Shown: positions 5,368-60,382, numbered from the stretch's first letter. The stretch: 64,000 nucleotides of DNA from Clostridiales bacterium (GCA_017961515.1 JAGCXC010000092.1:15626-79625); one strand, 5' to 3'. The notes: generated from the letters alone by a model not told the origin. Numbers and translations are program-made.

Positions 5368-7047
5368 TTACGCTTTTTCTTTTCCCTTTGCAATACTTTT
5401 ATTTATTCTTCTTATCTCTTCCGAAAACTTCCCATCTTTATTGTTATCTTGTATAAATAATCTAATTTGAGTGAATAATTTTCTATCTTTTTTTACTCTT
5501 CTTAAACTCTTTTGATCATTTAACACAAACTTTATATTATTTATTGCTGTATTCTTCCACTTGTCTTTCTTAGCTGGTGTTGCGAAAAATTTTCTTATGT
5601 CTCTTATTTTGTTATTAGAGTAATTTTTCATAGTTGAGCTATTAATCTTCTTAACATTTTTCTTCAACTTAATAATATTTTCATCAGCTAACCTTTTTGT
5701 TGTACTAGTAAACATACTTTTACTAATGTCTGCAACTACATTCACTATTTTATTCTTACAGCCTTTCATTCTGTCTTCCAATTCGGATGTTACTTCATTT
5801 GCTACACAACTTGCATTCTTTTTTAGTAAATCTCTCTTAGACTCTGAATCTATATTTTCTAATGTTTCCTTTAGCAAACTATTCAATATTTTTATTGTAT
5901 TGACATTTTTTAAATCTTTGTTTATATTTTTCAAAAACTTATCTAGAGACTTAGCTGTAACTCTAACTGCAACATCGCTTATTCCTCTTTCTCCCTCTAC
6001 ATTGTTCAAAACTTTAATTGTGATATTTTTTACATCTTTCTCTATTAGCTGATAAGCTTTTTTAGCTCTTTTCATTACACTTGTAATTTCATCATACTCT
6101 TTAATCAATGCATTCGTAAATTTAACAATTGCATCAATATCCTTAGCTATTCTATCAATTATACTTAAAGGTGTATCAATCCATTTCTTTTCATCTTCTC
6201 CTAAAGAATCTGACTTTCTTACTCCATCTCTTAGAAAAGCGACGGCAACTCTAATTAGCTTCTTTTGCACTTCTGGCTTTAATAAATAAGACATCAAATA
6301 ATTCCATGACTTAACAAATATACGATCAGTAGTAACTATATCTGTGTTAGCTCCACATTCAATCAACACATCTTTCATAAAATCTTTTTTGTTTTCAATT
6401 GTGTATGTAAGTAATGAATAACCACGATTATCTCTCTTGTTTATATCTACCCCAACCTCAACTAATTTAGATATAATCATTTTCTTTTCTTCATCAGATT
6501 GTTGCCCATCCACAATTGTCCATAGTACAGTCTTTCCTTCATTATCTACAAAATTCAAATCTAAATCATTCTCTTTTAAAACATTTATTAATTCCAATTT
6601 ATCTTTAGCACTAAGCAAATTACTGTTTACTACTCTACATAATATGTTTTCTCCGTAGCTATATGAAAACTCTATTTTTGAACCACTATTTATTAATGTC
6701 TTTGCCAATTTAGCATAACCCTTTTCTATTACAAATTCCAATGGTTTACATAAATCCTTTTGAGACTCGCTCTCTAAGTTCACGTTGTACCTTTGTAACA
6801 ATTCAACCATTTCAACTTTTTTATCCTCGTTTATTGATTCGGAAAATAATACTGCCCAAAGAGGTGTCTTGCCATTTCCATCTAATTTGTTTACATTAAA
6901 TCCTACATTTAATAAAAATTTAGCCCATCTAGTATGGCCTTTCTCACATGCTCTTGTTAATAAAGTCTTTTTGCTTTCTATCTTAAACCAACTCCACACA
7001 TCGCCTAATATCCTTGATAAACTATCCGGATAAAATTTCATAAACAA
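5368..7047 (-). CDS. ankyrin-repeat protein with a lysine-rich helical C-terminal half of unknown function
   Basis: 559 aa. The N-terminal ~230 aa hold 5-6 degenerate ANK repeats (e.g. GKTPLWAV, GKTVLWTIV, GYSLLTYTIENKKDFMKDVLIECGANTD). No signal peptide or TM. The track start is TTG 7047; ATG 7041 is an alternative. Confidence 0.7.
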   Translation of the reverse strand: MFMKFYPDSLSRILGDVWSWFKIESKKTLLTRACEKGHTRWAKFLLNVGFNVNKLDGNGKTPLWAVLFSESINEDKKVEMVELLQRYNVNLESESQKDLCKPLEFVIEKGYAKLAKTLINSGSKIEFSYSYGENILCRVVNSNLLSAKDKLELINVLKENDLDLNFVDNEGKTVLWTIVDGQQSDEEKKMIISKLVEVGVDINKRDNRGYSLLTYTIENKKDFMKDVLIECGANTDIVTTDRIFVKSWNYLMSYLLKPEVQKKLIRVAVAFLRDGVRKSDSLGEDEKKWIDTPLSIIDRIAKDIDAIVKFTNALIKEYDEITSVMKRAKKAYQLIEKDVKNITIKVLNNVEGERGISDVAVRVTAKSLDKFLKNINKDLKNVNTIKILNSLLKETLENIDSESKRDLLKKNASCVANEVTSELEDRMKGCKNKIVNVVADISKSMFTSTTKRLADENIIKLKKNVKKINSSTMKNYSNNKIRDIRKFFATPAKKDKWKNTAINNIKFVLNDQKSLRRVKKDRKLFTQIRLFIQDNNKDGKFSEEIRRINKSIAKGKEKA

Positions 7048-17935: not shown

Positions 17936-20900
17936 CTATCTCCTAAATTCCAAACTAGCTCTTTTTCTATTATCAAGCTCTTCTAGATTTATGCGTTCTA
18001 GTTCTCTTCTTCTTCTATCTATTCGTTTCTTATTTTCAAGCTCTGTCCTAGTCTTATATGTATCTCTCACTTTTCTACCTGATTTTGAACCTTTTATCTT
18101 ATTTTTCATTTCAAGTTCCTTTTTTACACTCAGGGCATCAGCTAATACTACAGCAGTTCTACCTTCTACCCAAAGTTCATTATCATTTAGCTCATTGTCA
18201 CTTTTATCATGCTTTAACTTTAATTCCTTTAACTTGATATTTTTAACACATTCAAGCGTCGTTATATCTTCTTTTCGTCCATCTATAACCTTCGCCCACA
18301 CTCCATCAGGTAATGTTACTTTTACACTACCTGTATTGGCATTGAATATGACAACTATTTTATTGAATACATCACCATTTGCATTGTTATTTATTGTGTA
18401 GGCAACCACATTTGGAATATGCATATCAATAAAGGTTATATTTTTTTGTATATCCTCCGCCTTTGTCATTCTAAACGCAGGATGTCCCTTTCTAAGTCTT
18501 ATAAGCCTTTTATAGTAATTATTAACATCTATATATTTAGATTTTCTATACCAGTCAAATTTATTGACTTCATCTCCAGAATTATAACTATTATGTACTC
18601 CACCTTTTGTACGTAGAAATTCTTCTCCTCCATGGATAAACGGAATACCCTGACTTGTCAACACTATAGCCGCACTAAGCTTATCTATTTTTATTCTCTC
18701 CGACTCCATGTCTCCTCCATTGGTACAATTTATCTTATCCCACAATGTCAAGTTGTCGTGAGCTGATACATAGTTTATTGTCTTCACTGGACTATCTACT
18801 TTTGGTGGAATACCAACCTGTGGATGTTTTACAGCTGCCACAATAGATGTTTTTATCAATTCTTCTTTTCCAAAAGCTCCATTTGCAAAACCTGCTTCTC
18901 TTTCTGTAGATTCTGTATTGGCTCCTTTTATAGCATCCCTTAAAGTATCGTTAAATGTACCTATTCTATCTAGCTTCCAAGCATGTTCTCTCCTTGCTTG
19001 GAGCTCATAAGGCAAAGCTGATCCTTCATATCCTGTCCATCCCTCTCCATAGAGTATGACATTTTCCTTAATGGCATCCATTTCCTCTCTTATTTTATTC
19101 ATAAGATTAAAATCATGTAATCCCATAAGATCAAACCTAAACCCATCAATATGATATTCCTTCATCCAATATCTTAATGAATCTCTTATCATTTTCCCTG
19201 TCATTTCTCTCTCTGAGGACGTTTCATTACCACAACCTGACCCATTCGAGAATGTACCATTACTATTTTTTCTATGATAATAACCAGGCACTATCTTATT
19301 AAAATTCGAATCCTCCGTCTTTGCTGTGTGATTATAAACAACATCCATAATAACACCTATACCCTTATCGTGTAATGCCTTAATTGCTTTTTTACACTCC
19401 ATTATCCTTACCTCAGGGATTTCTGCATTGGTAGAATATGAGCCTTCTGGAACATTATAATTTTCTGGATTGTAACCCCAATTATATTTCCCATCATTAA
19501 CTCTTTCATTTACTCCACTAAAATCAAATATAGGCAACAAGTGCACATGCGTTACACCTAACTCTTCTATGTGCGAAAGACCTGTTTTTTCTCCTTCTTT
19601 GCTTTTAGTTCCCTTCTCTGTTAATCCTAAGAACTTACCTTTGTTAACAACTCCCGAATTTTTGTCTATTGTTAAATCTCTCACATGCACTTCATATATT
19701 ATAGCATCTTCAATGTTTTTTAGAACAGGGCCCTTATCCTTATCCCAACCTGAAGGATCTGTATCCTTTAAGTCTACAATTGCTCCCCTTTCTCCATTTA
19801 CGCCTACTGCTTTTGCATATATGTCTACAGCTTCTCTCTCTTTTCCATAATTATTTACTTTGTACGTGTAGAATAACCCCTTCAAATTTCCTTTTATTGT
19901 TTTTTCCCACGTCCCATTTTCAGATGGATCCATTTCTATCTCCTGTATTGCCTCTCCTTCTATTCCATCTGCATACAAACAAATTTTTATACTACTTGCT
20001 GTAGGTGCCCACACTTTAAATTTACTACGTTCCTCTCCATATGTAAGTCCCAAATCTTCTTTATCATAGACATACAAATCCTTAAACTCTTTACTATCAT
20101 ATCTATTTTCTAAAGATACTTGACTTTCTCCATATCCATCCCTTAATAAGGTATACCTTTTTGTAACTAACAATTCATCTTTTGTTAGTATTTCATAAAA
20201 CTTATACCCTATCTGATTAACTCCTTTAATCTCTACCTCTTCTTTTCCATCTTTTACTTTAAAATCGTTAATGGAAACTTCGCCTTCTATTGCGTAATTT
20301 AATACCGCACAAATTCTATTAGATCCATCTATATAGGATTTGAGTATCTTAGGTGACGCATCAACGTCTTCTCTCTTGTACACAATATTTTCCTCATCTT
20401 GTAACAAAAAGACCTCAAGTTCCCCTTTTTCATTAAGCCTAGTTACATCTATATAACGGTTTATATAGATATCCCTTTTCTCCCAATTATTCCTTTTTAT
20501 TATAATTCCTAATTGAGTTAATCCTTCACTCTTTCCTTTATAGAATTCAGCGTACTTACCATAGTCGTCTTCTCCAGTAAAATAGTACTCCCTGCCTTCT
20601 TTTTCAGAGCTTAATCTATCTTTTTCCCACAACCATATATTCCATCCATCATAATCTTTGTTATATCTACTATAATGAATCTTAATTTTTATTTTCTCCA
20701 CTGCCTCTTTTTCAGTAGGTAAAACTCTATCTACGCTGTTTAAATATCGATTTGCATCTTCTTTATTAAAGAAAAACTCTTTCTCATTATCTATAATGTA
20801 AACATTAACATTACTACCTTTTTTGATAGGTATAAACCTATCATCTCCATCTTTTTCTTTCCATCGATTTTCTCCTTGCGCCTTTTTTACTACAAATCCT

Positions 20901-21127
20901 ATTTTTTTTAATCTTCTCGTTTTGCTAAGTGACAAGGTAAGAACCCTACCAAATTCATCTTCCTTTGCATTTTTTTTATCAAATTCAACTTCTCTTGGAG
21001 AAAAGTCTTTGCCAAACTTATCTCTTTCCCATACCCAAAAACTCCAGTCTTTGTAGTCGTTATCTCTTCTCTTATAATGAAAATTAACTGTCACTTTGTC
21101 CTCTGGAAAATTAAGAAAATCTAACAA
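17936..21127 (-). CDS. pulA: type I pullulanase (2x CBM41/PUD-like, CBM48, GH13), cytoplasmic
   Basis: 1063 aa. TTG start with GGGGTG 7 nt upstream. Two HY(K/S)R..DY.GW..W.WE modules, YNWGYNP, GFRFDLMG, YGEGW and YVSAHDN. No signal peptide. A ~70-aa R/K/E-rich C-terminal tail. Confidence 0.9.
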   Translation of the reverse strand: MLDFLNFPEDKVTVNFHYKRRDNDYKDWSFWVWERDKFGKDFSPREVEFDKKNAKEDEFGRVLTLSLSKTRRLKKIGFVVKKAQGENRWKEKDGDDRFIPIKKGSNVNVYIIDNEKEFFFNKEDANRYLNSVDRVLPTEKEAVEKIKIKIHYSRYNKDYDGWNIWLWEKDRLSSEKEGREYYFTGEDDYGKYAEFYKGKSEGLTQLGIIIKRNNWEKRDIYINRYIDVTRLNEKGELEVFLLQDEENIVYKREDVDASPKILKSYIDGSNRICAVLNYAIEGEVSINDFKVKDGKEEVEIKGVNQIGYKFYEILTKDELLVTKRYTLLRDGYGESQVSLENRYDSKEFKDLYVYDKEDLGLTYGEERSKFKVWAPTASSIKICLYADGIEGEAIQEIEMDPSENGTWEKTIKGNLKGLFYTYKVNNYGKEREAVDIYAKAVGVNGERGAIVDLKDTDPSGWDKDKGPVLKNIEDAIIYEVHVRDLTIDKNSGVVNKGKFLGLTEKGTKSKEGEKTGLSHIEELGVTHVHLLPIFDFSGVNERVNDGKYNWGYNPENYNVPEGSYSTNAEIPEVRIMECKKAIKALHDKGIGVIMDVVYNHTAKTEDSNFNKIVPGYYHRKNSNGTFSNGSGCGNETSSEREMTGKMIRDSLRYWMKEYHIDGFRFDLMGLHDFNLMNKIREEMDAIKENVILYGEGWTGYEGSALPYELQARREHAWKLDRIGTFNDTLRDAIKGANTESTEREAGFANGAFGKEELIKTSIVAAVKHPQVGIPPKVDSPVKTINYVSAHDNLTLWDKINCTNGGDMESERIKIDKLSAAIVLTSQGIPFIHGGEEFLRTKGGVHNSYNSGDEVNKFDWYRKSKYIDVNNYYKRLIRLRKGHPAFRMTKAEDIQKNITFIDMHIPNVVAYTINNNANGDVFNKIVVIFNANTGSVKVTLPDGVWAKVIDGRKEDITTLECVKNIKLKELKLKHDKSDNELNDNELWVEGRTAVVLADALSVKKELEMKNKIKGSKSGRKVRDTYKTRTELENKKRIDRRRRELERINLEELDNRKRASLEFRR

Positions 21128-41135: not shown

Positions 41136-41163
41136 TTGATTTCTGCTCAATATGTTATATAAT
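41136..41163 (+). promoter_or_regulatory. sigma-A-type promoter for the ltaS-like/murL-like/murD2 operon
   Basis: TTGATT (41136-41141), 16-nt spacer, TATAAT (41158-41163). Confidence 0.55.
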
Positions 41164-41210
41164 TGTGTTTGGGGTTTTTGTTTTTAAAAAAAAAATAATT
41201 TTTATAAGGG

Positions 41211-42872
41211 TTGATTTTTTTGTTTAATTTCAGAAAGTTGAATTGGAGTTTAATTTTATTTCTTTTATTTAATACATTAAAACTTGTTTGTTTTAACGTC
41301 ATTATATCTGATAATATAGGCTTTATGCCAATTTTTATTGGTATGAAATTTATTCTAAATTCAGTTTTGGTATTTTGTCTGTTTGTACCTTTGTTAAAAA
41401 ATAAATTAATAAAAACTTGTTTGTTTGTATATTCGTTACAGTTTGTTTATTTAACCGCACATTTATGTTATTTTAAATATTTTCATAATTACTTACATAT
41501 AATGCAAACCTTCACATTATTTGCTGAAGGTACGAAGGCATTAGCTAATTTGTACTTCTTTTTAGATGGATCATTTTTATTTTTATTTATAGATTTACCA
41601 TTTTTTATTCATTTTATGAGAAATAAATCTAAAGATGTACATTGCCGTTTTCCCACTATAATATCCATGTTTGTGATAGCGGGGTTGTCGGCTTTTTGCT
41701 ATATTAACTTATTTGCACCATACATAAATGATCGCTCTTTATCACCTCTTTTGGTTGCACCTAACGAGACTGATATCGTGCGGAAATATGGTACATTAAC
41801 TAATGATGTGTTTTCTTTTTGCGCAAATAAAAGTGAAGTCGATATACTAAAAAGCTTTTCTTATGGAAAACCCGTTTCTGTATCAGATACACCTAATACG
41901 AAGAATAACATTGTTATTTTGCAGTTGGAATCTATCGATGCAAACGTTGTAAATAAAACTTATAATGGAAAGTATATTGCTCCATATCTACATGAACTAT
42001 CTAAAAAATGTGTTTATTATCCATATATGATGTCTTATCATATGGGAGGAGGAACTTCTGATTCTGAATTTTCTATTTTAAATAGTATTGAGCCTCTACA
42101 ACATTATCCTGCTATGAAACTTAAAAGTTATGACTATCCAAATTCGTTTTTAAAAAGCCTAAATGCAAATGACTATACGTGTCTTGCTTTTCACGGAAAT
42201 GTTGCAAAGTATTTTAATAGATTAAATGCCTTTCCTAAAATGGGCTTTTCAAAATTTTATGATATATTCAAGATGAGATTAAGTAATAAAGGTTGGGGCG
42301 CTTCTGATGGTGATGTATTAGATTTTACTTTCAACAAATTAACTAAAACTAAATCGCCTTTTTTGGCATACATTATAACAATGACCAGTCATGCATCTTT
42401 CACTAATGCTAGTCATTACTACAACAACAACTTATATGATGATATAGAAGACGAAGTTGTCAAAAACTATTTTAATTCTGTATCATACGTTGACATGGTA
42501 CTAAAAGATTTTATTACTTCTGTTAGAGAAACAATGCCTAACACTTATGTATTTGTCTGGGGCGATCATACCCCTGCAATAAATAAACCTTTATACTCAC
42601 AGGCATCTTTGTCGTACGATAAAAAATATTTTGAGTTTGTTCCTTTGTTGATCATAACTCCTGACAATAAAACTTATACTGAACGTTCAAAGGTAGCATC
42701 TTTCTTAGATATTGCTCTAACAGTGCTAAACGCATCTAATTCGGATTTCTCAATTAGCACAAACGGAATAGATTTGTTGGACTTTAGTAATACCGATGCT
42801 CCTGCTATACCTTTTAAAAACAGGTCTTATTCTAGAGAGACATTGTTTAGCGAATTAATCGCCAACAATTAG
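41211..42872 (+). CDS. LTA-synthase-family (sulfatase/phosphoglycerol-transferase-like) polytopic membrane protein
   Basis: 553 aa. About 5 N-terminal TM helices, then an extracytoplasmic sulfatase-like domain (IVILQLESIDANVV, GGGTSDSEFSILNS, WGDHTP). The start is uncertain: TTG 41211 abuts AAGGG, while TTG 41220 has better spacing. Confidence 0.75.
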   Translation: MIFLFNFRKLNWSLILFLLFNTLKLVCFNVIISDNIGFMPIFIGMKFILNSVLVFCLFVPLLKNKLIKTCLFVYSLQFVYLTAHLCYFKYFHNYLHIMQTFTLFAEGTKALANLYFFLDGSFLFLFIDLPFFIHFMRNKSKDVHCRFPTIISMFVIAGLSAFCYINLFAPYINDRSLSPLLVAPNETDIVRKYGTLTNDVFSFCANKSEVDILKSFSYGKPVSVSDTPNTKNNIVILQLESIDANVVNKTYNGKYIAPYLHELSKKCVYYPYMMSYHMGGGTSDSEFSILNSIEPLQHYPAMKLKSYDYPNSFLKSLNANDYTCLAFHGNVAKYFNRLNAFPKMGFSKFYDIFKMRLSNKGWGASDGDVLDFTFNKLTKTKSPFLAYIITMTSHASFTNASHYYNNNLYDDIEDEVVKNYFNSVSYVDMVLKDFITSVRETMPNTYVFVWGDHTPAINKPLYSQASLSYDKKYFEFVPLLIITPDNKTYTERSKVASFLDIALTVLNASNSDFSISTNGIDLLDFSNTDAPAIPFKNRSYSRETLFSELIANN

Positions 42873-42913
42873 GCATATACTTTAGAAACATTTTTTTACG
42901 AAAGGATTTTTTT

Positions 42914-44266
42914 ATGAAACAATATAACTACAAAAATTTTTATTATGAAAATTATACAATAGAAACTTTAGACAATATCATCAAAATATCTTTCGAATTC
43001 AGTATAGAAGGATTAACAAAATTTAATCCTTCACTAACTATAGATAAGAAAAAATTTAAATTTTTTAATAACTTAAATAATAGCACCGCTAAAAGAATCG
43101 TTTTTTGCATGGGGATGGTAGAACTTATAAGCTACTGGAAATGCGTTTGTCCACCAAATATATTTATAAATTGCGCTTATATTGATCAAGAAGAAATCCT
43201 TTGGTGGAAAAAGTTATATTTCCTAGGACTTGGGGAATTCTTTTACACAAATAGTATAACCCCCAAATTCGACTCATTTGTAAATATAATTTGCACTAGT
43301 AAGGACACTTTCGATATTAATGATTATTCCTTCAACAAAAATGATACTTATTCCAACTTAATTCCTGTTGGAGGTGGCAAAGACTCTATTGTGACATTGG
43401 AATTATTAAAGTCGCTAAAAGATAAAAACCTACCTCTTATTATTAATCCTCGTGGAGCTTCAATCGAGAGTGCACATATAGCTGGATATACAAACGACAA
43501 GATATTTACTATATCGAGAGCTATTGATCCTAATTTGCTTTCGTTAAATAAAAAAGGTTTCTTGAATGGGCACACTCCATTTTCTGCTATGTTAGGATTT
43601 ACATCTTTGTTGGTAGGCTATATTATGGGAATAACCAATATTGTCTTGTCAAATGAATCTAGTGCCAATGAGTCTAATATACAAGGTACTAATATAAATC
43701 ATCAATACTCTAAAAGTCTTGAGTTTGAGTTAGACTTTTCTAATTACATAAAAAAATATATCTCTTGTGATATAAATTACTTTAGTCTTTTACGTCCATT
43801 CTCTGAGATAAAAATTGCACAGCTTTTCTCAAAGCACAAGAAATACTATAGTGTATTTAAAAGCTGTAATGTTGGTAGTAAAAAAGATATTTGGTGCGGT
43901 AATTGTCCTAAATGTATGTTTGTTTATATTATCATGTTACCTTTTATGGAACTATCTGATTTGAAAACAATTTTTGGGAAAGATATGCTTGATGATTACA
44001 ACCTATTATCAATATTTCGTGGGCTAATTGGTATGGACCCAGTAAAACCTTTTGAATGTGTTGGAACTATTGAGGAAGTAAATCTTGCACTAAATCTTGC
44101 ATATGATAGACATTACAAAGATTCTAATCTTCCTATTTTGCTTGATTACTATATAAAAAATTACACTGGTAACAAATATATAAATAGTACTTCATTGATT
44201 AGTTTTAATGAAAATAACATACCAGATAATCTATTAAGAATTGTAGGTGACTTACAACATGATTAA
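42914..44266 (+). CDS. PP-loop ATPase-like protein, candidate UDP-MurNAc-L-Ala-L-Glu epimerase (MurL-like)
   Basis: 450 aa. RBS GAAAGGA. PP-loop-like LIPVGGGKDSIVTLELL. Its stop overlaps the start of a MurD2-type ligase as ATGATTAA. The size and pairing match the MurD2-MurL system described in Xanthomonas. The family assignment was not verified by any alignment. Confidence 0.5.
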   Translation: MKQYNYKNFYYENYTIETLDNIIKISFEFSIEGLTKFNPSLTIDKKKFKFFNNLNNSTAKRIVFCMGMVELISYWKCVCPPNIFINCAYIDQEEILWWKKLYFLGLGEFFYTNSITPKFDSFVNIICTSKDTFDINDYSFNKNDTYSNLIPVGGGKDSIVTLELLKSLKDKNLPLIINPRGASIESAHIAGYTNDKIFTISRAIDPNLLSLNKKGFLNGHTPFSAMLGFTSLLVGYIMGITNIVLSNESSANESNIQGTNINHQYSKSLEFELDFSNYIKKYISCDINYFSLLRPFSEIKIAQLFSKHKKYYSVFKSCNVGSKKDIWCGNCPKCMFVYIIMLPFMELSDLKTIFGKDMLDDYNLLSIFRGLIGMDPVKPFECVGTIEEVNLALNLAYDRHYKDSNLPILLDYYIKNYTGNKYINSTSLISFNENNIPDNLLRIVGDLQHD

Positions 44267-45614
44267 TGCCATTGTTTCACATTTGCAAAATAAAAAAATT
44301 TTGATTCTAGGTTTTGGTAGAGAAGGACGTTCATCTTTCTCTTTTATAAAGAAATATTTAAATACTGCAAACGTTTGTATTGCTGATAAAAATAAGGTTG
44401 ATATATCAACCGATGATAACGTACGTGTTATTAGTGATGAGGACTATCTTAACTCTTTAAATGAGTTTGACATAATACTAAAAAGTCCTGGCATATCTTT
44501 AAAAAATGTTGACGTTGACACAAGTAAAATATCTTCCCAGCTTGATCTTTTCTTGCGTTATAGTTCTATAACTACAATTGGAATTACAGGTACCAAAGGA
44601 AAAACTACAACATCTACGTTGATATACAATATTTTAAAAAAAGCAAACAAATCTTGCTTTTTACTTGGAAATATTGGTGTTCCAGTGTTTGAATGTCTTG
44701 AAAATATTACAAATGATTCTATCGCTGTTGTTGAAATGTCTTCACATCAACTTGAATTTATGACTCATTCACCCAATATAGCTATATTGACCAATTTATA
44801 TCCAGAGCACCTGGATCACTATCTTAGCTATCAACATTATATAAATGCTAAGCTAAATATTTTTAAGTTTCAGAAAAACAATGCTTATTCCATATTTGGA
44901 TTAGATCAACCTCAATATACTGCAAAGATAAAATCTTGTATATGCTCAAATGAAATAGCTATTAGCTTAAATCACGCAAAAAATGCTTCATTGTATCTAG
45001 ACAAGAATTTTGTTATAACTACTCCTACATACAAATCAAACATATGTGTAAAAAATTTAAATAAACATCTTTTGGGCAATCATCATTTTTATGATATTAT
45101 GTTTGCATTCGCTGCATGTAAAGCATTAAATATAGATGATAATTATATTATATTAAGCTTAAAAGAATTTGCAGGTATACCTCATCGTATGGAATACGTA
45201 GGGTGTTTTAATGGAATTCATTTTTATAATGATTCAATTGCTACAATACCTGCTGCAGTTATTAATGCTGTCAACACACTTAATAAAGTAAATACTTTAA
45301 TTATTGGTGGTATGGATCGAGGAATAAGTTACACGGATTTTGCGCAATTTCTTATAGATTCTAACATTGAACACATAATTTGTTTATATGAAACTGGTAA
45401 AAAAATTGCCAAAATGATACTAAATACAGATCCTACCTTATCCTCTAGAGTATTTATAGTAGAAACGTTGACCGATGCTGTAGATATGGCATTTGCCAAA
45501 ACAAAAAAAGATAGTATTTGTTTATTGTCTCCAGCAGCTGCGAGTTATGGATATTTTAAAAATTTTGAGGATAGAGGCAACACATTTAAAAAGTTAATAC
45601 ACGAACACATTTAA
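44259..45614 (+). CDS. murD2: MurD-family ligase, MurD2 subtype candidate (UDP-MurNAc-L-Ala--L-Glu ligase)
   Basis: Start set at ATG 44259, 9 nt after AGGTGA. ILILGFGREGRSS, where canonical MurD has GLG.SG. GITGTKGKTTTSTL P-loop. A C-terminal Mur ligase domain (IPHRMEYV, IIGGMDRG). Confidence 0.7.
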   Translation: MINAIVSHLQNKKILILGFGREGRSSFSFIKKYLNTANVCIADKNKVDISTDDNVRVISDEDYLNSLNEFDIILKSPGISLKNVDVDTSKISSQLDLFLRYSSITTIGITGTKGKTTTSTLIYNILKKANKSCFLLGNIGVPVFECLENITNDSIAVVEMSSHQLEFMTHSPNIAILTNLYPEHLDHYLSYQHYINAKLNIFKFQKNNAYSIFGLDQPQYTAKIKSCICSNEIAISLNHAKNASLYLDKNFVITTPTYKSNICVKNLNKHLLGNHHFYDIMFAFAACKALNIDDNYIILSLKEFAGIPHRMEYVGCFNGIHFYNDSIATIPAAVINAVNTLNKVNTLIIGGMDRGISYTDFAQFLIDSNIEHIICLYETGKKIAKMILNTDPTLSSRVFIVETLTDAVDMAFAKTKKDSICLLSPAAASYGYFKNFEDRGNTFKKLIHEHI

Positions 45615-45621
45615 ATCTAAT

Positions 45622-45660
45622 AAAAAGAGCATTTAAATTAATGTGCTCTTTTTTTATTTT
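45622..45660 (+). terminator. rho-independent terminator of the murD2 operon
   Basis: AAAAAGAGCA-N12-TGCTCTTTTTTT. Confidence 0.7.
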
Positions 45661-56863: not shown

Positions 56864-59800
56864 CTAAAAACCTAGTTGCGACATTAAATAACTCTTTTCT
56901 GTCTTTTTGTTTTGTGTATATTTTACCGGTACATATAAATGTATTGTTGCTTCTCCTGTATTGGCAACATCCTCCTCTGTTGCAATCTCTAAATATTGTA
57001 TTGTTTTTCCATTTTGTTTCGCTTTCACTTCTTTTACCAACATAACAGGAACTTCCATAATATCTCTATAACTTCTAGATACCACCGTGCTATCATTTTT
57101 TACTTTTGTAGCATTCCCTGAGTAATACCCATGATCAGTTATAACTAAATTCCGGCATTCACTCGTTTGATTATATTCATCACTTGATATATATTCTCCT
57201 ACACTGGCTTTACCCACTACCCCATTTGAACCAAACGCCATTTTAGTCCCTGCTAATGCCATAGCAACAGACTCTTCATTTTGATTAAACTTTACCTCTA
57301 TCTCCCTTGTTATAGTTCCTACTTTACTATCTACGTCCTTATAAGTCTTTATATTATCTCCTGATTTTTTCAATTTTACATTAGTTGTACCGGGTATACC
57401 TATATTACGAATAAGCTTTATGCCCACTAGCTTATCGTCTTTTTGTGAACTTACATCATATTCGTATACATATTCATAATTTATACCAAGTTTACTAAGT
57501 ATTGTACTTCCGCTACTGTCATATGCTCCAAACAAATCCACTAAGTATACATTTCTCTCTTCTGTATCATAATTTACATCATCACTTAAATCTGTTCCAT
57601 TGTTCTTTGATACACGCTCATCTTTGGTTTTTACTGCTATAAGCTTTTTAGTATCTTTAATAATTCCATTAAAAGTGCTATTTGTTGAATCAATTAAAAT
57701 TTCAAACTCATCTCTTTCGCCTAGTTTTTCTAATGTTATCTTTTCAATTATAACATTCTCATCTTCTTTTGCTTTTACAAATTCCCTTAGATCTTTTATA
57801 CTGTTATTACTCTCTATTTCTTCTTCGTTTCCTTTTAATTTCAATTTAATTTTATATTTTCCAAGAAGCGATCCACTTATCTTTATAGATCCTATATTAT
57901 CATTTTCTACCTCCATGGTAGCTTCATTTCCAACTATATCATTACTTTCAGTATCAATATTTTCTACATCTTTATTATCTTCTCCATCACCACCCTCTGT
58001 CTTTGTAGTAGCCACTTTATTCCGTAAATCTAAAACCTCGGAATCTCCTTTTATAAATTTTCCTGTATCTGCATCTACTCTAAAACATGACCATACATTC
58101 TCATGCGCTACTGCACCACTATTGTAGTTTATATCCTTATACAAAACTATACCATCAACGTTTTCAATACTTCGGCCCTTTGAATCTCTTTGCGTAGAAG
58201 CTCCGATTAATACTTTCATATCTTTATATTTTTCATAAAACTTAATTAATTTTTCAGTATCTTCAATTGTGTTATCATTGGTACTTTCTAATACTTTAGT
58301 CTCCTCTGCATTTAGTAAATCTGTCCTTATATTTTCAATCGGTCCTATTAATGTCTTAATTATTTTTCCTGTCGAATCATAAAATTTAGCAAAATATCTA
58401 CCCTTTATTGCTATAGACTGTGGATAATAATCTCCTAAACTAATTTTTTCCCCTAATTTATTAAACTCTTTAAAAGTTCCTACACCATTTGGCTTAATAT
58501 ATAATACAGCAAATGGATTATATTCTACTTTCGGCTCCACTACAAATGCCCTTGTATTATCTTCATATGTCCTTCTACATATAGCTTTATTGTCATCTTC
58601 TTTGCTCTCGGTATTCTCTTTACTCTTAGTACTATCTGTATCTTTTTCCTTCTCTATAACCACCTTATTATTCCCATCATCCTCTTCAGTCCAACTCGGA
58701 TCCAAATAGTACATATTCAAACTTTTCTCTAAATCCTCTACGACACACGGACCATCAATTACAATTCTCACGTCTCCTTTATCACTATATATTTTACCAT
58801 TATTTTCTTCTGATAGAATACAATCTTTAACATTCGAGAATATAATCCTAGCATTAGGAGCCACTTCTAAGGATTTTATCTTTTCTATATTTGCATATTC
58901 TCTATCATATACCTCTCCTCTATAAAACTTCATATAATTTCCTGTGAAATTTTTCCCTGTATAAACAGTAACAGCTGTGTCCTCTGTAATTTGGGGCAAT
59001 TCATGCACTTTAACTACATCTTCGTATCTTGCAATATAACCTTTTTCTTTACCTTTTTTGTACTCAAATTTAATTTTTCTAAATTCGTTATCGTCGTAAA
59101 ACTTTACACACCCCTCATAAAAACTACTATCTGTTTTTTCATCTCCTGTTTCTTCTAATATGCTAGTTATACTCAAGCTTGAAAAATCATTAGTCCCGTG
59201 TGCTCCTTCTTCTCCTTTATCATGTAATCTCCAAAAATCTACTACACTTACAATCTTATTTTTTCCTCCTTTTATGCATATACGTTGCTCAGATGTTCCT
59301 TTCCCTGTATTCTCTTTTTCCCTTTTTAATCTGACTTCATAATTACCTACAATCATTATACTATTTACCATTGATCCAGTTTTAAACTCATCGCTTGAAA
59401 CTAATGTTGGGGTTCTCCCATCTTTTTTATATTTTTCAAAATTTTCCTGAAAAACTAATGGATCTATATAACAATATGCGCCTTTTCCCATTCCATCTCT
59501 TCCTTTTGAATCATCTGGCCCATTAATTACGTTATATACATCTCTCATTAGATAAACTCCATCTCTTAAAGCTACTCTTTTTACTCGTATCTTTTTCATA
59601 TTATATATTTTCACATTTTTTCTCTCATACGGATCCCCATCTACTTCATTTCCAGGTGTAGACCAACAATCTGTCTCATTATAGTCCCACATTTTACTGT
59701 ACATACTATTAACGTTATAATCATCAACTATATACCCATCTGTAACTGCCGAATTAATTGAATATTTTCCTTTTGGATCCTCATCATAATTCTTACCTAC

Positions 59801-60226
59801 TAGCCTTAATGGGCCCAATATCCTTGTTTCATTGGTTCCATCAATTAATATCGCTTCATATCCTGGTGCCAAATCAAAAACTACTATGTCTTTAGAATTA
59901 AGATTATCAGCAACTTCATTATTTTTTCCTATGTTAATATATTCATCTATGTATAACCAAGATTTATCTTTATATACTAATTTAAGGCCTGTGTTATTAG
60001 GCTCTTTCCTGCTTATAGTCCTATTTGGAATATTATATTTATCTTCTAAAAAATCTAAAGTTATATTATCTTCTGATGCCGGTATATTATTTTTTATAAC
60101 CCCATTCTCCAACCAATCTGCATAGGATATTGTTCTTTTGTACACTTTAAATCCAACAATACCCAATAGGATGGTACAAACCGTTACCATACACACTTTT
60201 GCCATATAAGAAGATTTTTTTACCAT
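56864..60226 (-). CDS. very large membrane-anchored/exported hypothetical protein
   Basis: Start set at ATG 60226, 8 nt after GGAG, giving MVKKSSYMAKVCMVTVCTILLGIVGFKVY, an N-terminal anchor. About 1120 aa, beta-rich, with acidic low-complexity linkers. No domain confidently recognised. Confidence 0.6.
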   Translation of the reverse strand: MVKKSSYMAKVCMVTVCTILLGIVGFKVYKRTISYADWLENGVIKNNIPASEDNITLDFLEDKYNIPNRTISRKEPNNTGLKLVYKDKSWLYIDEYINIGKNNEVADNLNSKDIVVFDLAPGYEAILIDGTNETRILGPLRLVGKNYDEDPKGKYSINSAVTDGYIVDDYNVNSMYSKMWDYNETDCWSTPGNEVDGDPYERKNVKIYNMKKIRVKRVALRDGVYLMRDVYNVINGPDDSKGRDGMGKGAYCYIDPLVFQENFEKYKKDGRTPTLVSSDEFKTGSMVNSIMIVGNYEVRLKREKENTGKGTSEQRICIKGGKNKIVSVVDFWRLHDKGEEGAHGTNDFSSLSITSILEETGDEKTDSSFYEGCVKFYDDNEFRKIKFEYKKGKEKGYIARYEDVVKVHELPQITEDTAVTVYTGKNFTGNYMKFYRGEVYDREYANIEKIKSLEVAPNARIIFSNVKDCILSEENNGKIYSDKGDVRIVIDGPCVVEDLEKSLNMYYLDPSWTEEDDGNNKVVIEKEKDTDSTKSKENTESKEDDNKAICRRTYEDNTRAFVVEPKVEYNPFAVLYIKPNGVGTFKEFNKLGEKISLGDYYPQSIAIKGRYFAKFYDSTGKIIKTLIGPIENIRTDLLNAEETKVLESTNDNTIEDTEKLIKFYEKYKDMKVLIGASTQRDSKGRSIENVDGIVLYKDINYNSGAVAHENVWSCFRVDADTGKFIKGDSEVLDLRNKVATTKTEGGDGEDNKDVENIDTESNDIVGNEATMEVENDNIGSIKISGSLLGKYKIKLKLKGNEEEIESNNSIKDLREFVKAKEDENVIIEKITLEKLGERDEFEILIDSTNSTFNGIIKDTKKLIAVKTKDERVSKNNGTDLSDDVNYDTEERNVYLVDLFGAYDSSGSTILSKLGINYEYVYEYDVSSQKDDKLVGIKLIRNIGIPGTTNVKLKKSGDNIKTYKDVDSKVGTITREIEVKFNQNEESVAMALAGTKMAFGSNGVVGKASVGEYISSDEYNQTSECRNLVITDHGYYSGNATKVKNDSTVVSRSYRDIMEVPVMLVKEVKAKQNGKTIQYLEIATEEDVANTGEATIHLYVPVKYTQNKKTEKSYLMSQLGF

Positions 60227-60382
60227 TGAATTCACTCCTTCAACATAAAGCGACTTATTGGTTTTACGTTATTATACACATTTATCAAGTAAATTATCGG
60301 TATTATTATTATTTTTTTTTACAATTAAAGGCTGACACACCCATTATACATTGAGCGTGTCACAGGATAGGTATTGATTTTT

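Follow-up and report, generated by a model that had tools for sequence, protein, structure and literature searches.

A putative MurL-MurD2 peptidoglycan-precursor branch in an operon with an LtaS-family gene of an uncultured Clostridiales bacterium

Genes and signals of the locus

The 64-kb stretch of DNA analysed here at its full length (JAGCXC010000092.1:15626-79625, called the window below) comes from a metagenome-assembled genome (MAG) of an uncultured "Clostridiales bacterium" of the ruminant gut (locus tags J6Y29_*; proteins MBP5427549-51). It carries three co-oriented genes on the plus strand (41220-45614), which encode an LtaS-family membrane enzyme (gene 1), a homologue of the epimerase MurL (gene 2) and a MurD-family ligase (gene 3) (Table 1). 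We think it likely that genes 2 and 3 form a MurL-MurD2 branch of peptidoglycan-precursor synthesis, with a housekeeping role as its most likely use, and that gene 1 is co-expressed with them without sharing their chemistry. This predicted identity of the pair is supported by independent lines, namely homology, specificity residues, gene order, natural fusions and modelled fold.

Nearly all other genes of the window are on the minus strand, and the three genes are the only plus-strand block of their neighbourhood. The spoIIIAA-AH operon lies upstream in divergent orientation with spoIID nearby, and two genes for secreted-looking proteins lie downstream in convergent orientation. The ORF (open reading frame) listing starts gene 1 at TTG 41211, and the public 550-aa gene call implies the TTG given in Table 1.

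The three genes are probably co-transcribed. An original prediction for this DNA had bracketed them with one promoter and one terminator. The terminator is well founded: its hairpin is followed by a U-run and folds at -11.5 kcal/mol (z = -3.97), and none of 200 shuffled sequences folded as well. The promoter was only partly borne out. Its hexamers lie in the 163 bp that separate the divergent spoIIIAA and gene 1, but matches of such quality are no commoner than in shuffled sequence (26 found against 33.1 expected). Only the position therefore speaks for a promoter, and we keep it as a candidate. With Rfam at E<=1, neither the leader nor the gaps between the genes showed a regulatory RNA, and only two chance-level matches came up, both inside gene 1.

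It had also been thought that the three genes are noticeably more AT-rich than their surroundings. The difference is marginal: their GC content (0.288-0.295) is slightly lower than the mean of 32 window genes (0.329, standard deviation (sd) 0.027), their GC content at third codon positions (GC3; 0.247, 0.246 and 0.192) is ordinary (0.249, sd 0.030), and they are not compositional outliers. Horizontal transfer or a compositional island is unsupported, as GC and GC3 of the genes are within about 1.5 sd of the window genes.

Table 1. Features of the three-gene locus in coordinates of the window
Feature	Coordinates	Strand	Details
Candidate sigma-70-type promoter	41136-41163	+	TTGATT-16 nt-TATAAT; 10/12 consensus matches
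Gene 1, LtaS family	41220-42872	+	550 aa; start TTG 41220, 9 nt after ribosome-binding site (RBS) TAAGGG
Gene 2, murL homologue	42914-44266	+	450 aa
PP-loop GGGKDS	43370-43387	+	MurL residues 153-158; P-x-GGGKDS invariant in 21 aligned diverse homologues
Cys cluster C318, C328, C331, C334	43862-43915	+	SCNVGSK...WCGNCPKC; invariant columns in the 21-homologue alignment
Gene 3, putative murD2-type ligase	44259-45614	+	Most likely start ATG 44259; RBS AGGTG 8 nt upstream
Start/stop overlap of genes 2 and 3	44259-44266	+	ATGATTAA; 8 bp, read directly from the sequence
Intrinsic terminator	45622-45660	+	11-bp stem 45622-45653, then U-run

Products of the three genes

The 450-aa product of gene 2 is annotated by NCBI as "hypothetical protein". 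The original prediction took it for a MurL-like protein, and a profile alignment agrees with this: the NCBIfam model MurL_Xanthmoales (NF041275) matches residues 56-406 with model positions 54-404 of 447 (E 1.8e-73, 248 bits), and the precomputed annotation gives the Pfam domains MurL_N and MurL_epimerase_C. By this homology the protein appears to be orthologous to the MurL of Xanthomonas.

The PP-loop-like motif that had been noticed in gene 2 is present, and the fold search supports the PP-loop reading. The closest PDB folds to the confident AlphaFold2 model (predicted local distance difference test score 87.7) are QatC (1.8e-5) and QueC (7e-4), with TtuA and Cap9 also among them. A PDB sequence search at E<=1 identified no solved MurL structure. 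Enzymes of the QueC family start their catalysis with the adenylation of a carboxylate. Published MurL uses one ATP, releases AMP and converts L to D in one direction, and an alpha-carboxyl adenylate has been proposed as its intermediate (PMC8788868, PMC5808125). The QueC-like fold and the PP-loop fit this ATP-to-AMP stoichiometry and the adenylation proposal (PMC8788868). Since both reviews describe MurL as having no recognisable domain, the assignment adds a little to them. The Cys cluster of the protein is adjacent to the PP-loop domain and may resemble the Cys-rich metal site of QueC-type enzymes, and neither review mentions a metal or Fe-S cofactor for MurL. Its invariant PP-loop and QueC-like fold speak indirectly for the predicted reaction, in which the terminal Glu would be epimerised from L to D in one direction, with ATP and Mg needed and AMP formed.

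Gene 3 encodes a full three-domain MurD-family ligase, named D-glutamate ligase by NCBI. It reached 317 bits with TIGR01087 murD (cutoff 212), had 27% identity to E. coli MurD (tblastn) and matched three solved MurDs at 5e-49 to 6e-35 (phmmer), the best being S. agalactiae MurD (5e-49). For the residue comparison, 78 MurL-linked ligases were aligned to the E. coli enzyme, whose literature numbering we use. K115, N138, E157, N178, H183, K198, T321, S415 and F422 are invariant in these ligases. Four other positions differ from E. coli: D182 is replaced by Glu in 74 of 78 (E183 in the window ligase), K348 by Arg in 76 of 76 (R354), K319 by Ile in 76 of 76 (I327, codon 45237-45239, NDSIAT against NDSKAT) and L416 by Tyr in 74 of 75 (Y430). 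In the PDB alignments, position 319 is Lys and position 182 is Asp or Thr in the three canonical MurDs.

Glu and Arg at the D182 and K348 positions match the published determinants of L-Glu specificity, in agreement with the earlier proposal of a MurD2-type ligase. In X. oryzae MurD2 the equivalent residues E197 and R358 set the stereospecificity, and the E197D/R358K change turns the enzyme into a D-Glu ligase (PMC8788868). From these residues we infer that the window ligase is specific for L-Glu. In random mutagenesis, K319T was the single change by which E. coli MurD accepted L-Glu, and K330T did the same in S. mutans (PMC8788868); the reviews PMC8788868 and PMC5808125 make no mention of a natural substitution at this position. 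Laboratory evolution had picked out this very position, so that the Ile found here checks the published specificity model independently.

The nucleotide-binding loop GFGREGRS (ligase residues 18-25) had been read as a MurD2 signature. The reading holds for MurL-linked ligases: Glu occupies the position of E. coli Thr16 in all 78 ligases, which gives the pattern G[FY]G[RK]EGxS, and all 121 nearest database homologues have GxGxEG with this Glu. Glu16/Glu182/Ile319/Arg348 (E. coli numbering) may serve as a simple annotation signature separating MurD2 from MurD.

The product of gene 1 is named "LTA synthase family protein" by NCBI (MBP5427549.1; LTA, lipoteichoic acid). Its polytopic N-terminal part contains about five hydrophobic segments in residues 10-170, and a Sulfatase domain predicted to be extracytoplasmic follows (residues 233-508, Pfam E 2.9e-29), just as expected for the polytopic LtaS/sulfatase-family enzyme seen by the original prediction. 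PDB sequence matches are to the extracellular LtaS (eLtaS) domains 2W8D, 4UOP and 2W5Q, each at about 1e-22. The catalytic, metal and substrate residues of S. aureus LtaS we take to be E255, T300, H347, R356, H416, D475 and H476. In the alignment, the Thr nucleophile and the metal/substrate motifs of LtaS are kept in gene 1; the motifs LES, GGTSD, FHGN, NR, SH and GDH show no variation among 18 homologues and align with B. subtilis LtaS2. Gene 1 probably encodes an active enzyme. With 107 bits in the NCBIfam LtaS equivalog model it stays below the cutoff of 970, so polyglycerolphosphate LTA cannot be taken for granted as its product. Bacillota commonly carry homologues at 40-47% identity.

Another LtaS-family protein, with 49% identity to gene 1, is encoded on contigs of the two metagenome samples that also contain the window genome (L089 1871-3532 and L090 1573-3234). 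Its gene adjoins recX and clpP, not murL. The GC content of these contigs is 0.275 versus 0.32, and the gene may belong to a related organism instead of being a paralogue.

Distribution of the pair and its linkage to the LtaS-family gene

A pattern scan of species-representative genomes (one genome per species) gave at least 592 stretches encoding relatives, and the locus counts given here rest on the best 80 of them. These belong to Oscillospiraceae, Acutalibacteraceae, Lachnospiraceae (including Pseudobutyrivibrio xylanivorans DSM 14809), Erysipelotrichales and many Bacteroidales/Marinilabiliales. murD2 directly follows murL in 77 of the 80 loci, in Clostridia, Erysipelotrichales and Bacteroidota alike. 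An exhaustive HMMER search found 2,659 clusters (50% identity) at E<=1e-3; 1,203 of them were at E<=1e-30, many of these from gut Clostridia, Erysipelotrichales and Bacteroidota. Of the best 150 cluster representatives, 37 are single-chain fusions of MurL and MurD (MurL first in 34, MurD first in three). The adjacency and the fusions fit the MurD2-MurL pairing that had been proposed for the window.

Two examples of fusions are P0241 (923 aa; L096 2121-4892, called as a gene on a contig of Bacteroidota, with GldN encoded nearby) and P0252 (914 aa). Such natural MurL-MurD2 fusions would be convenient single-protein targets for biochemistry.

The published distribution covers some Gamma- and Alphaproteobacteria and rare actinobacteria; the pathway is presented as narrow, and for this reason it has been proposed as a narrow-spectrum antibiotic target (PMC8788868, PMC5808125). 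The same reviews describe work by Feng et al. (2017) in which MurD2 and MurL orthologues of Micromonospora and Salinispora were tested (PMC8788868, PMC5808125). Our literature search for a wider distribution turned up nothing beyond these reviews by the discoverers. MurL-MurD2 is far more widespread than they describe, and its hosts include gut anaerobes. It is also systematically mis-annotated in public records, the epimerase as "hypothetical" and the ligase as "D-glutamate ligase". The window locus provides a corrected annotation, in which the pair would form a bypass that adds L-Glu and then epimerises it. If gut organisms depend on MurL-MurD2, inhibitors would also reach common commensals.

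In several lineages the pair lies beside genes of the division and cell wall (dcw) cluster or other mur genes, which links it to peptidoglycan synthesis. Bulleidia sp. (L059, L061, 1-10650) has the order rsmH-ftsL-pbp-mraY-secDF-HAD-murL-murD2, and no murD directly follows mraY. Just downstream of murL-murD2 we found mraZ-rsmH-ftsI at one locus (L047) and murC at another (L006), and in Pseudobutyrivibrio murF-ddl lie a few kb upstream. Clustering of three genes on each side in the 80 loci gave no conserved third partner, only phylogenetically local synteny (e.g. a DUF179/YqgE-like gene in Bacteroidota). Bulleidia would offer a good genome for asking whether MurD2 replaced MurD.

Linkage of the pair to an LtaS-like gene, noted earlier as not known to be described, is real, though only a narrow clade has it. 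The order LtaS-like/murL/murD2 is kept with 26-41 bp gaps in three different genomic contexts. In the relatives that have all three genes, MurL is 68-72% and the LtaS-like protein 56-67% identical to the window proteins, and the flanking genes differ: spoIIIA in the window, CNNM and ClpX in L084 and L087, and other genes in L083. A search within 8 kb on either side of murL in the 80 distant loci found no sulfatase-family gene, not even with the threshold relaxed to E<1, and no sulfatase domain was fused to the best 150 MurL representatives. LtaS-like homologues at 47-50% identity stand alone, without murL-murD2. The linkage is a lineage-specific operon arrangement and not a property of the MurL-MurD2 system. 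The literature found does not mention it.

Elsewhere in the window, two ankyrin-repeat proteins (Pfam Ank_2 and related) are encoded on the minus strand (5368-7047 and 7375-9951), and others belong to this genome or its relatives (L085 4336-8172, L084 3716-5227 and L087 8311-9743). They have 557, 858 and 1278 aa in contigs identical to the window, and 503 and 1028 aa in relatives. So many large proteins of this kind seem notable in a spore-forming Clostridiales MAG that looks free-living; they might point to interaction with a host. There are also two very large ORFs on the minus strand (17936-21127, 1063 aa; 56864-60235, 1123 aa). A homologue of the 1123-aa ORF (L085 12337-15699) has no Pfam domain in the precomputed annotation.

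Interpretation and comparison with known systems

In the mechanism that we propose, the MurD2-type ligase would add L-glutamate, not D-glutamate, to UDP-MurNAc-L-Ala. MurL, as a QueC-like PP-loop enzyme, would then adenylate the alpha-carboxylate of the added L-Glu (ATP to AMP), and in this way the L-Glu on the precursor would be flipped to D-Glu. The overlap of the two genes, correctly foreseen in the original prediction, would couple their translation. Gene 1 would encode an LtaS-type phosphotransferase acting outside the membrane on a teichoic-acid-like polymer; it may have come to share a promoter with murL-murD2 in a small clade, so that two envelope functions would be co-expressed.

By analogy with Xanthomonas, the pair is most likely a housekeeping system and may be the sole route to D-Glu. 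We favour the housekeeping role because the characterised systems are without murI; in those organisms MurL-MurD2 replaces murI/murD and does not supplement them (PMC8788868). The 64-kb window contained no second Mur ligase, and Pfam searches of ten window genes, eight of them of 285-360 aa, revealed no racemase or aminotransferase domain.

One of the few other plus-strand genes of the window (11576-12889) encodes a PGA_cap protein, of the CapA-like poly-gamma-glutamate capsule synthesis family (E 5e-58). Poly-gamma-glutamate often contains D-Glu. The D-Glu supply of this organism may therefore matter beyond peptidoglycan.

Several points weigh against the interpretation of genes 2 and 3 as a housekeeping MurL-MurD2 branch with an uncoupled gene 1. 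The 248 bits of the 450-aa protein do not reach the NF041275 equivalog cutoff of 700; as this model was built for Xanthomonadales only, the score limits the certainty of orthology and does not contradict homology. The window ligase has Ala and Tyr at the equivalents of MurD2 Pro433 and Phe435 (E. coli A414/L416); these positions are not decisive, since the P433A and F435L mutants of MurD2 stay L-Glu-specific (PMC8788868). Canonical streptococcal MurD likewise carries Arg at K348, so this residue alone is not diagnostic. The literature found contains no assay of any Clostridial or Bacteroidotal MurL or MurD2. Absence of murI, dat and canonical murD was seen over only about 85 kb of the genome (the window plus flanking regions on sister contigs). 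Finally, the order LtaS-murL-murD2 has survived in three contexts with rearranged surroundings, which may be more than chance.

Alternatively, the operon could be a second, specialised envelope module alongside murI and canonical murD, used conditionally in sporulation/cortex synthesis, D-Glu limitation or stress. Its position beside the spoIIIA operon with spoIID nearby and its isolation as a plus-strand block would suit such a use, the pair is inherited together with an LtaS paralogue in one clade, which may point to a dedicated unit, and the 85 kb in which neither murI nor canonical murD was seen are only a part of the genome. However, the spoIIIA adjacency is lost in relatives with the same three genes, where the flanks are CNNM/ClpX or others, and in characterised organisms the pair stands in place of murI/murD (PMC8788868). 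The ligase also keeps all residues for catalysis and substrate contact that were checked except D182, K319, K348 and L416, and in Bulleidia the dcw cluster just ahead of the pair has no murD directly after mraY. We regard this explanation as unlikely.

A different possibility concerns gene 1. The substrates of LtaS-type domains are lipid-linked and lie outside the membrane, while those of MurD2 and MurL are UDP-sugars of the cytoplasm. With the membrane between them and such different substrates, it is simplest to assume that two envelope functions are co-expressed and share no chemistry, and the LtaS-like enzyme is probably uncoupled from MurL-MurD2 in mechanism. It is very improbable that the three genes form a dedicated, co-regulated envelope module in this clade, either as a growth-phase-specific wall programme that would make precursor D-Glu and a teichoic-acid-type polymer together or with the LtaS-like enzyme acting on a product that depends on the branch. 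Very improbable, too, is a mechanistic tie of the LtaS-family enzyme to Glu chemistry, in which the three genes would jointly make or alter a separate polymer of the wall that is linked to peptidoglycan and, for example, decorated with glycerophosphate or contains Glu. Gene order and the 26-41 bp spacing are indeed kept in three contexts while the sulfatase identity falls to 56%, but the two activities lie on opposite sides of the membrane, the 80 other loci and the best 150 representatives are free of nearby or fused sulfatase domains, and LtaS-like homologues at <=50% identity stand alone.

That gene 3 is an ordinary D-Glu MurD beside a PP-loop enzyme of QueC type that does something unrelated, e.g. 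nucleoside/tRNA modification, is hardly credible: the public annotation, the score above the murD equivalog cutoff and the QueC, QatC and TtuA folds would allow it, but full-length homology to a biochemically characterised MurL with the Pfam MurL domains, the L-Glu determinant residues, the near-universal adjacency and the repeated fusions all speak against it, and TIGR01087, which predates MurD2, is presumably unable to separate MurD from MurD2.

Compared with canonical MurD (E. coli 1UAG/2UAG, S. agalactiae 3LK7 and T. maritima 4BUC), the window ligase has the same three domains, ATP/Mg-binding residues and carbamylated lysine, whereas it differs in D182 to E, K319 to I and T16 to E. Its loop GFGREGRS stands against the canonical GLGLTGLS, GLARSGEA and GFGKSNRS. 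Its gene is paired with murL, while E. coli murD adjoins mraY and ftsW in the dcw cluster.

The predicted core fold of MurL is shared with QueC, QatC and Cap9, as are an SGGxDS-type PP-loop, a C-terminal Cys cluster and, presumably, ATP-dependent carboxylate activation as the first step. Sequence identity to these proteins is only 10-20%, and TM-scores over the whole MurL are 0.3-0.4. Unlike them, MurL has an additional N-terminal domain, its substrate would be UDP-muramyl dipeptide, and the outcome would be epimerisation and not formation of an amide, nitrile or conjugate.

Gene 1 resembles LtaS and LtaP (S. aureus LtaS 2W5Q, B. subtilis LtaS2 2W8D and Listeria LtaP 4UOP) in its five-transmembrane N-terminus and extracellular sulfatase-fold domain, but it is shorter (550 aa) and far under the LtaS equivalog cutoff (107 vs 970 bits).

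The nearest known system is that of Xanthomonas oryzae MurD2 (XOO_1320) and MurL (XOO_1319). The window host, a low-GC, spore-forming Clostridiales MAG, belongs to a group outside the published distribution. Its MurL is of a distant subfamily (about 248 bits to the Xanthomonadales model), its ligase has Ala and Tyr for Pro433 and Phe435 and Ile at the K319 position, and its predicted operon has an LtaS-family gene upstream. In both systems the gene of a MurD-family ligase is adjacent to that of a MurL homologue of about 450 aa, Glu and Arg occupy the two specificity-switching positions, and the PP-loop of the window protein is consistent with the AMP-forming mechanism.

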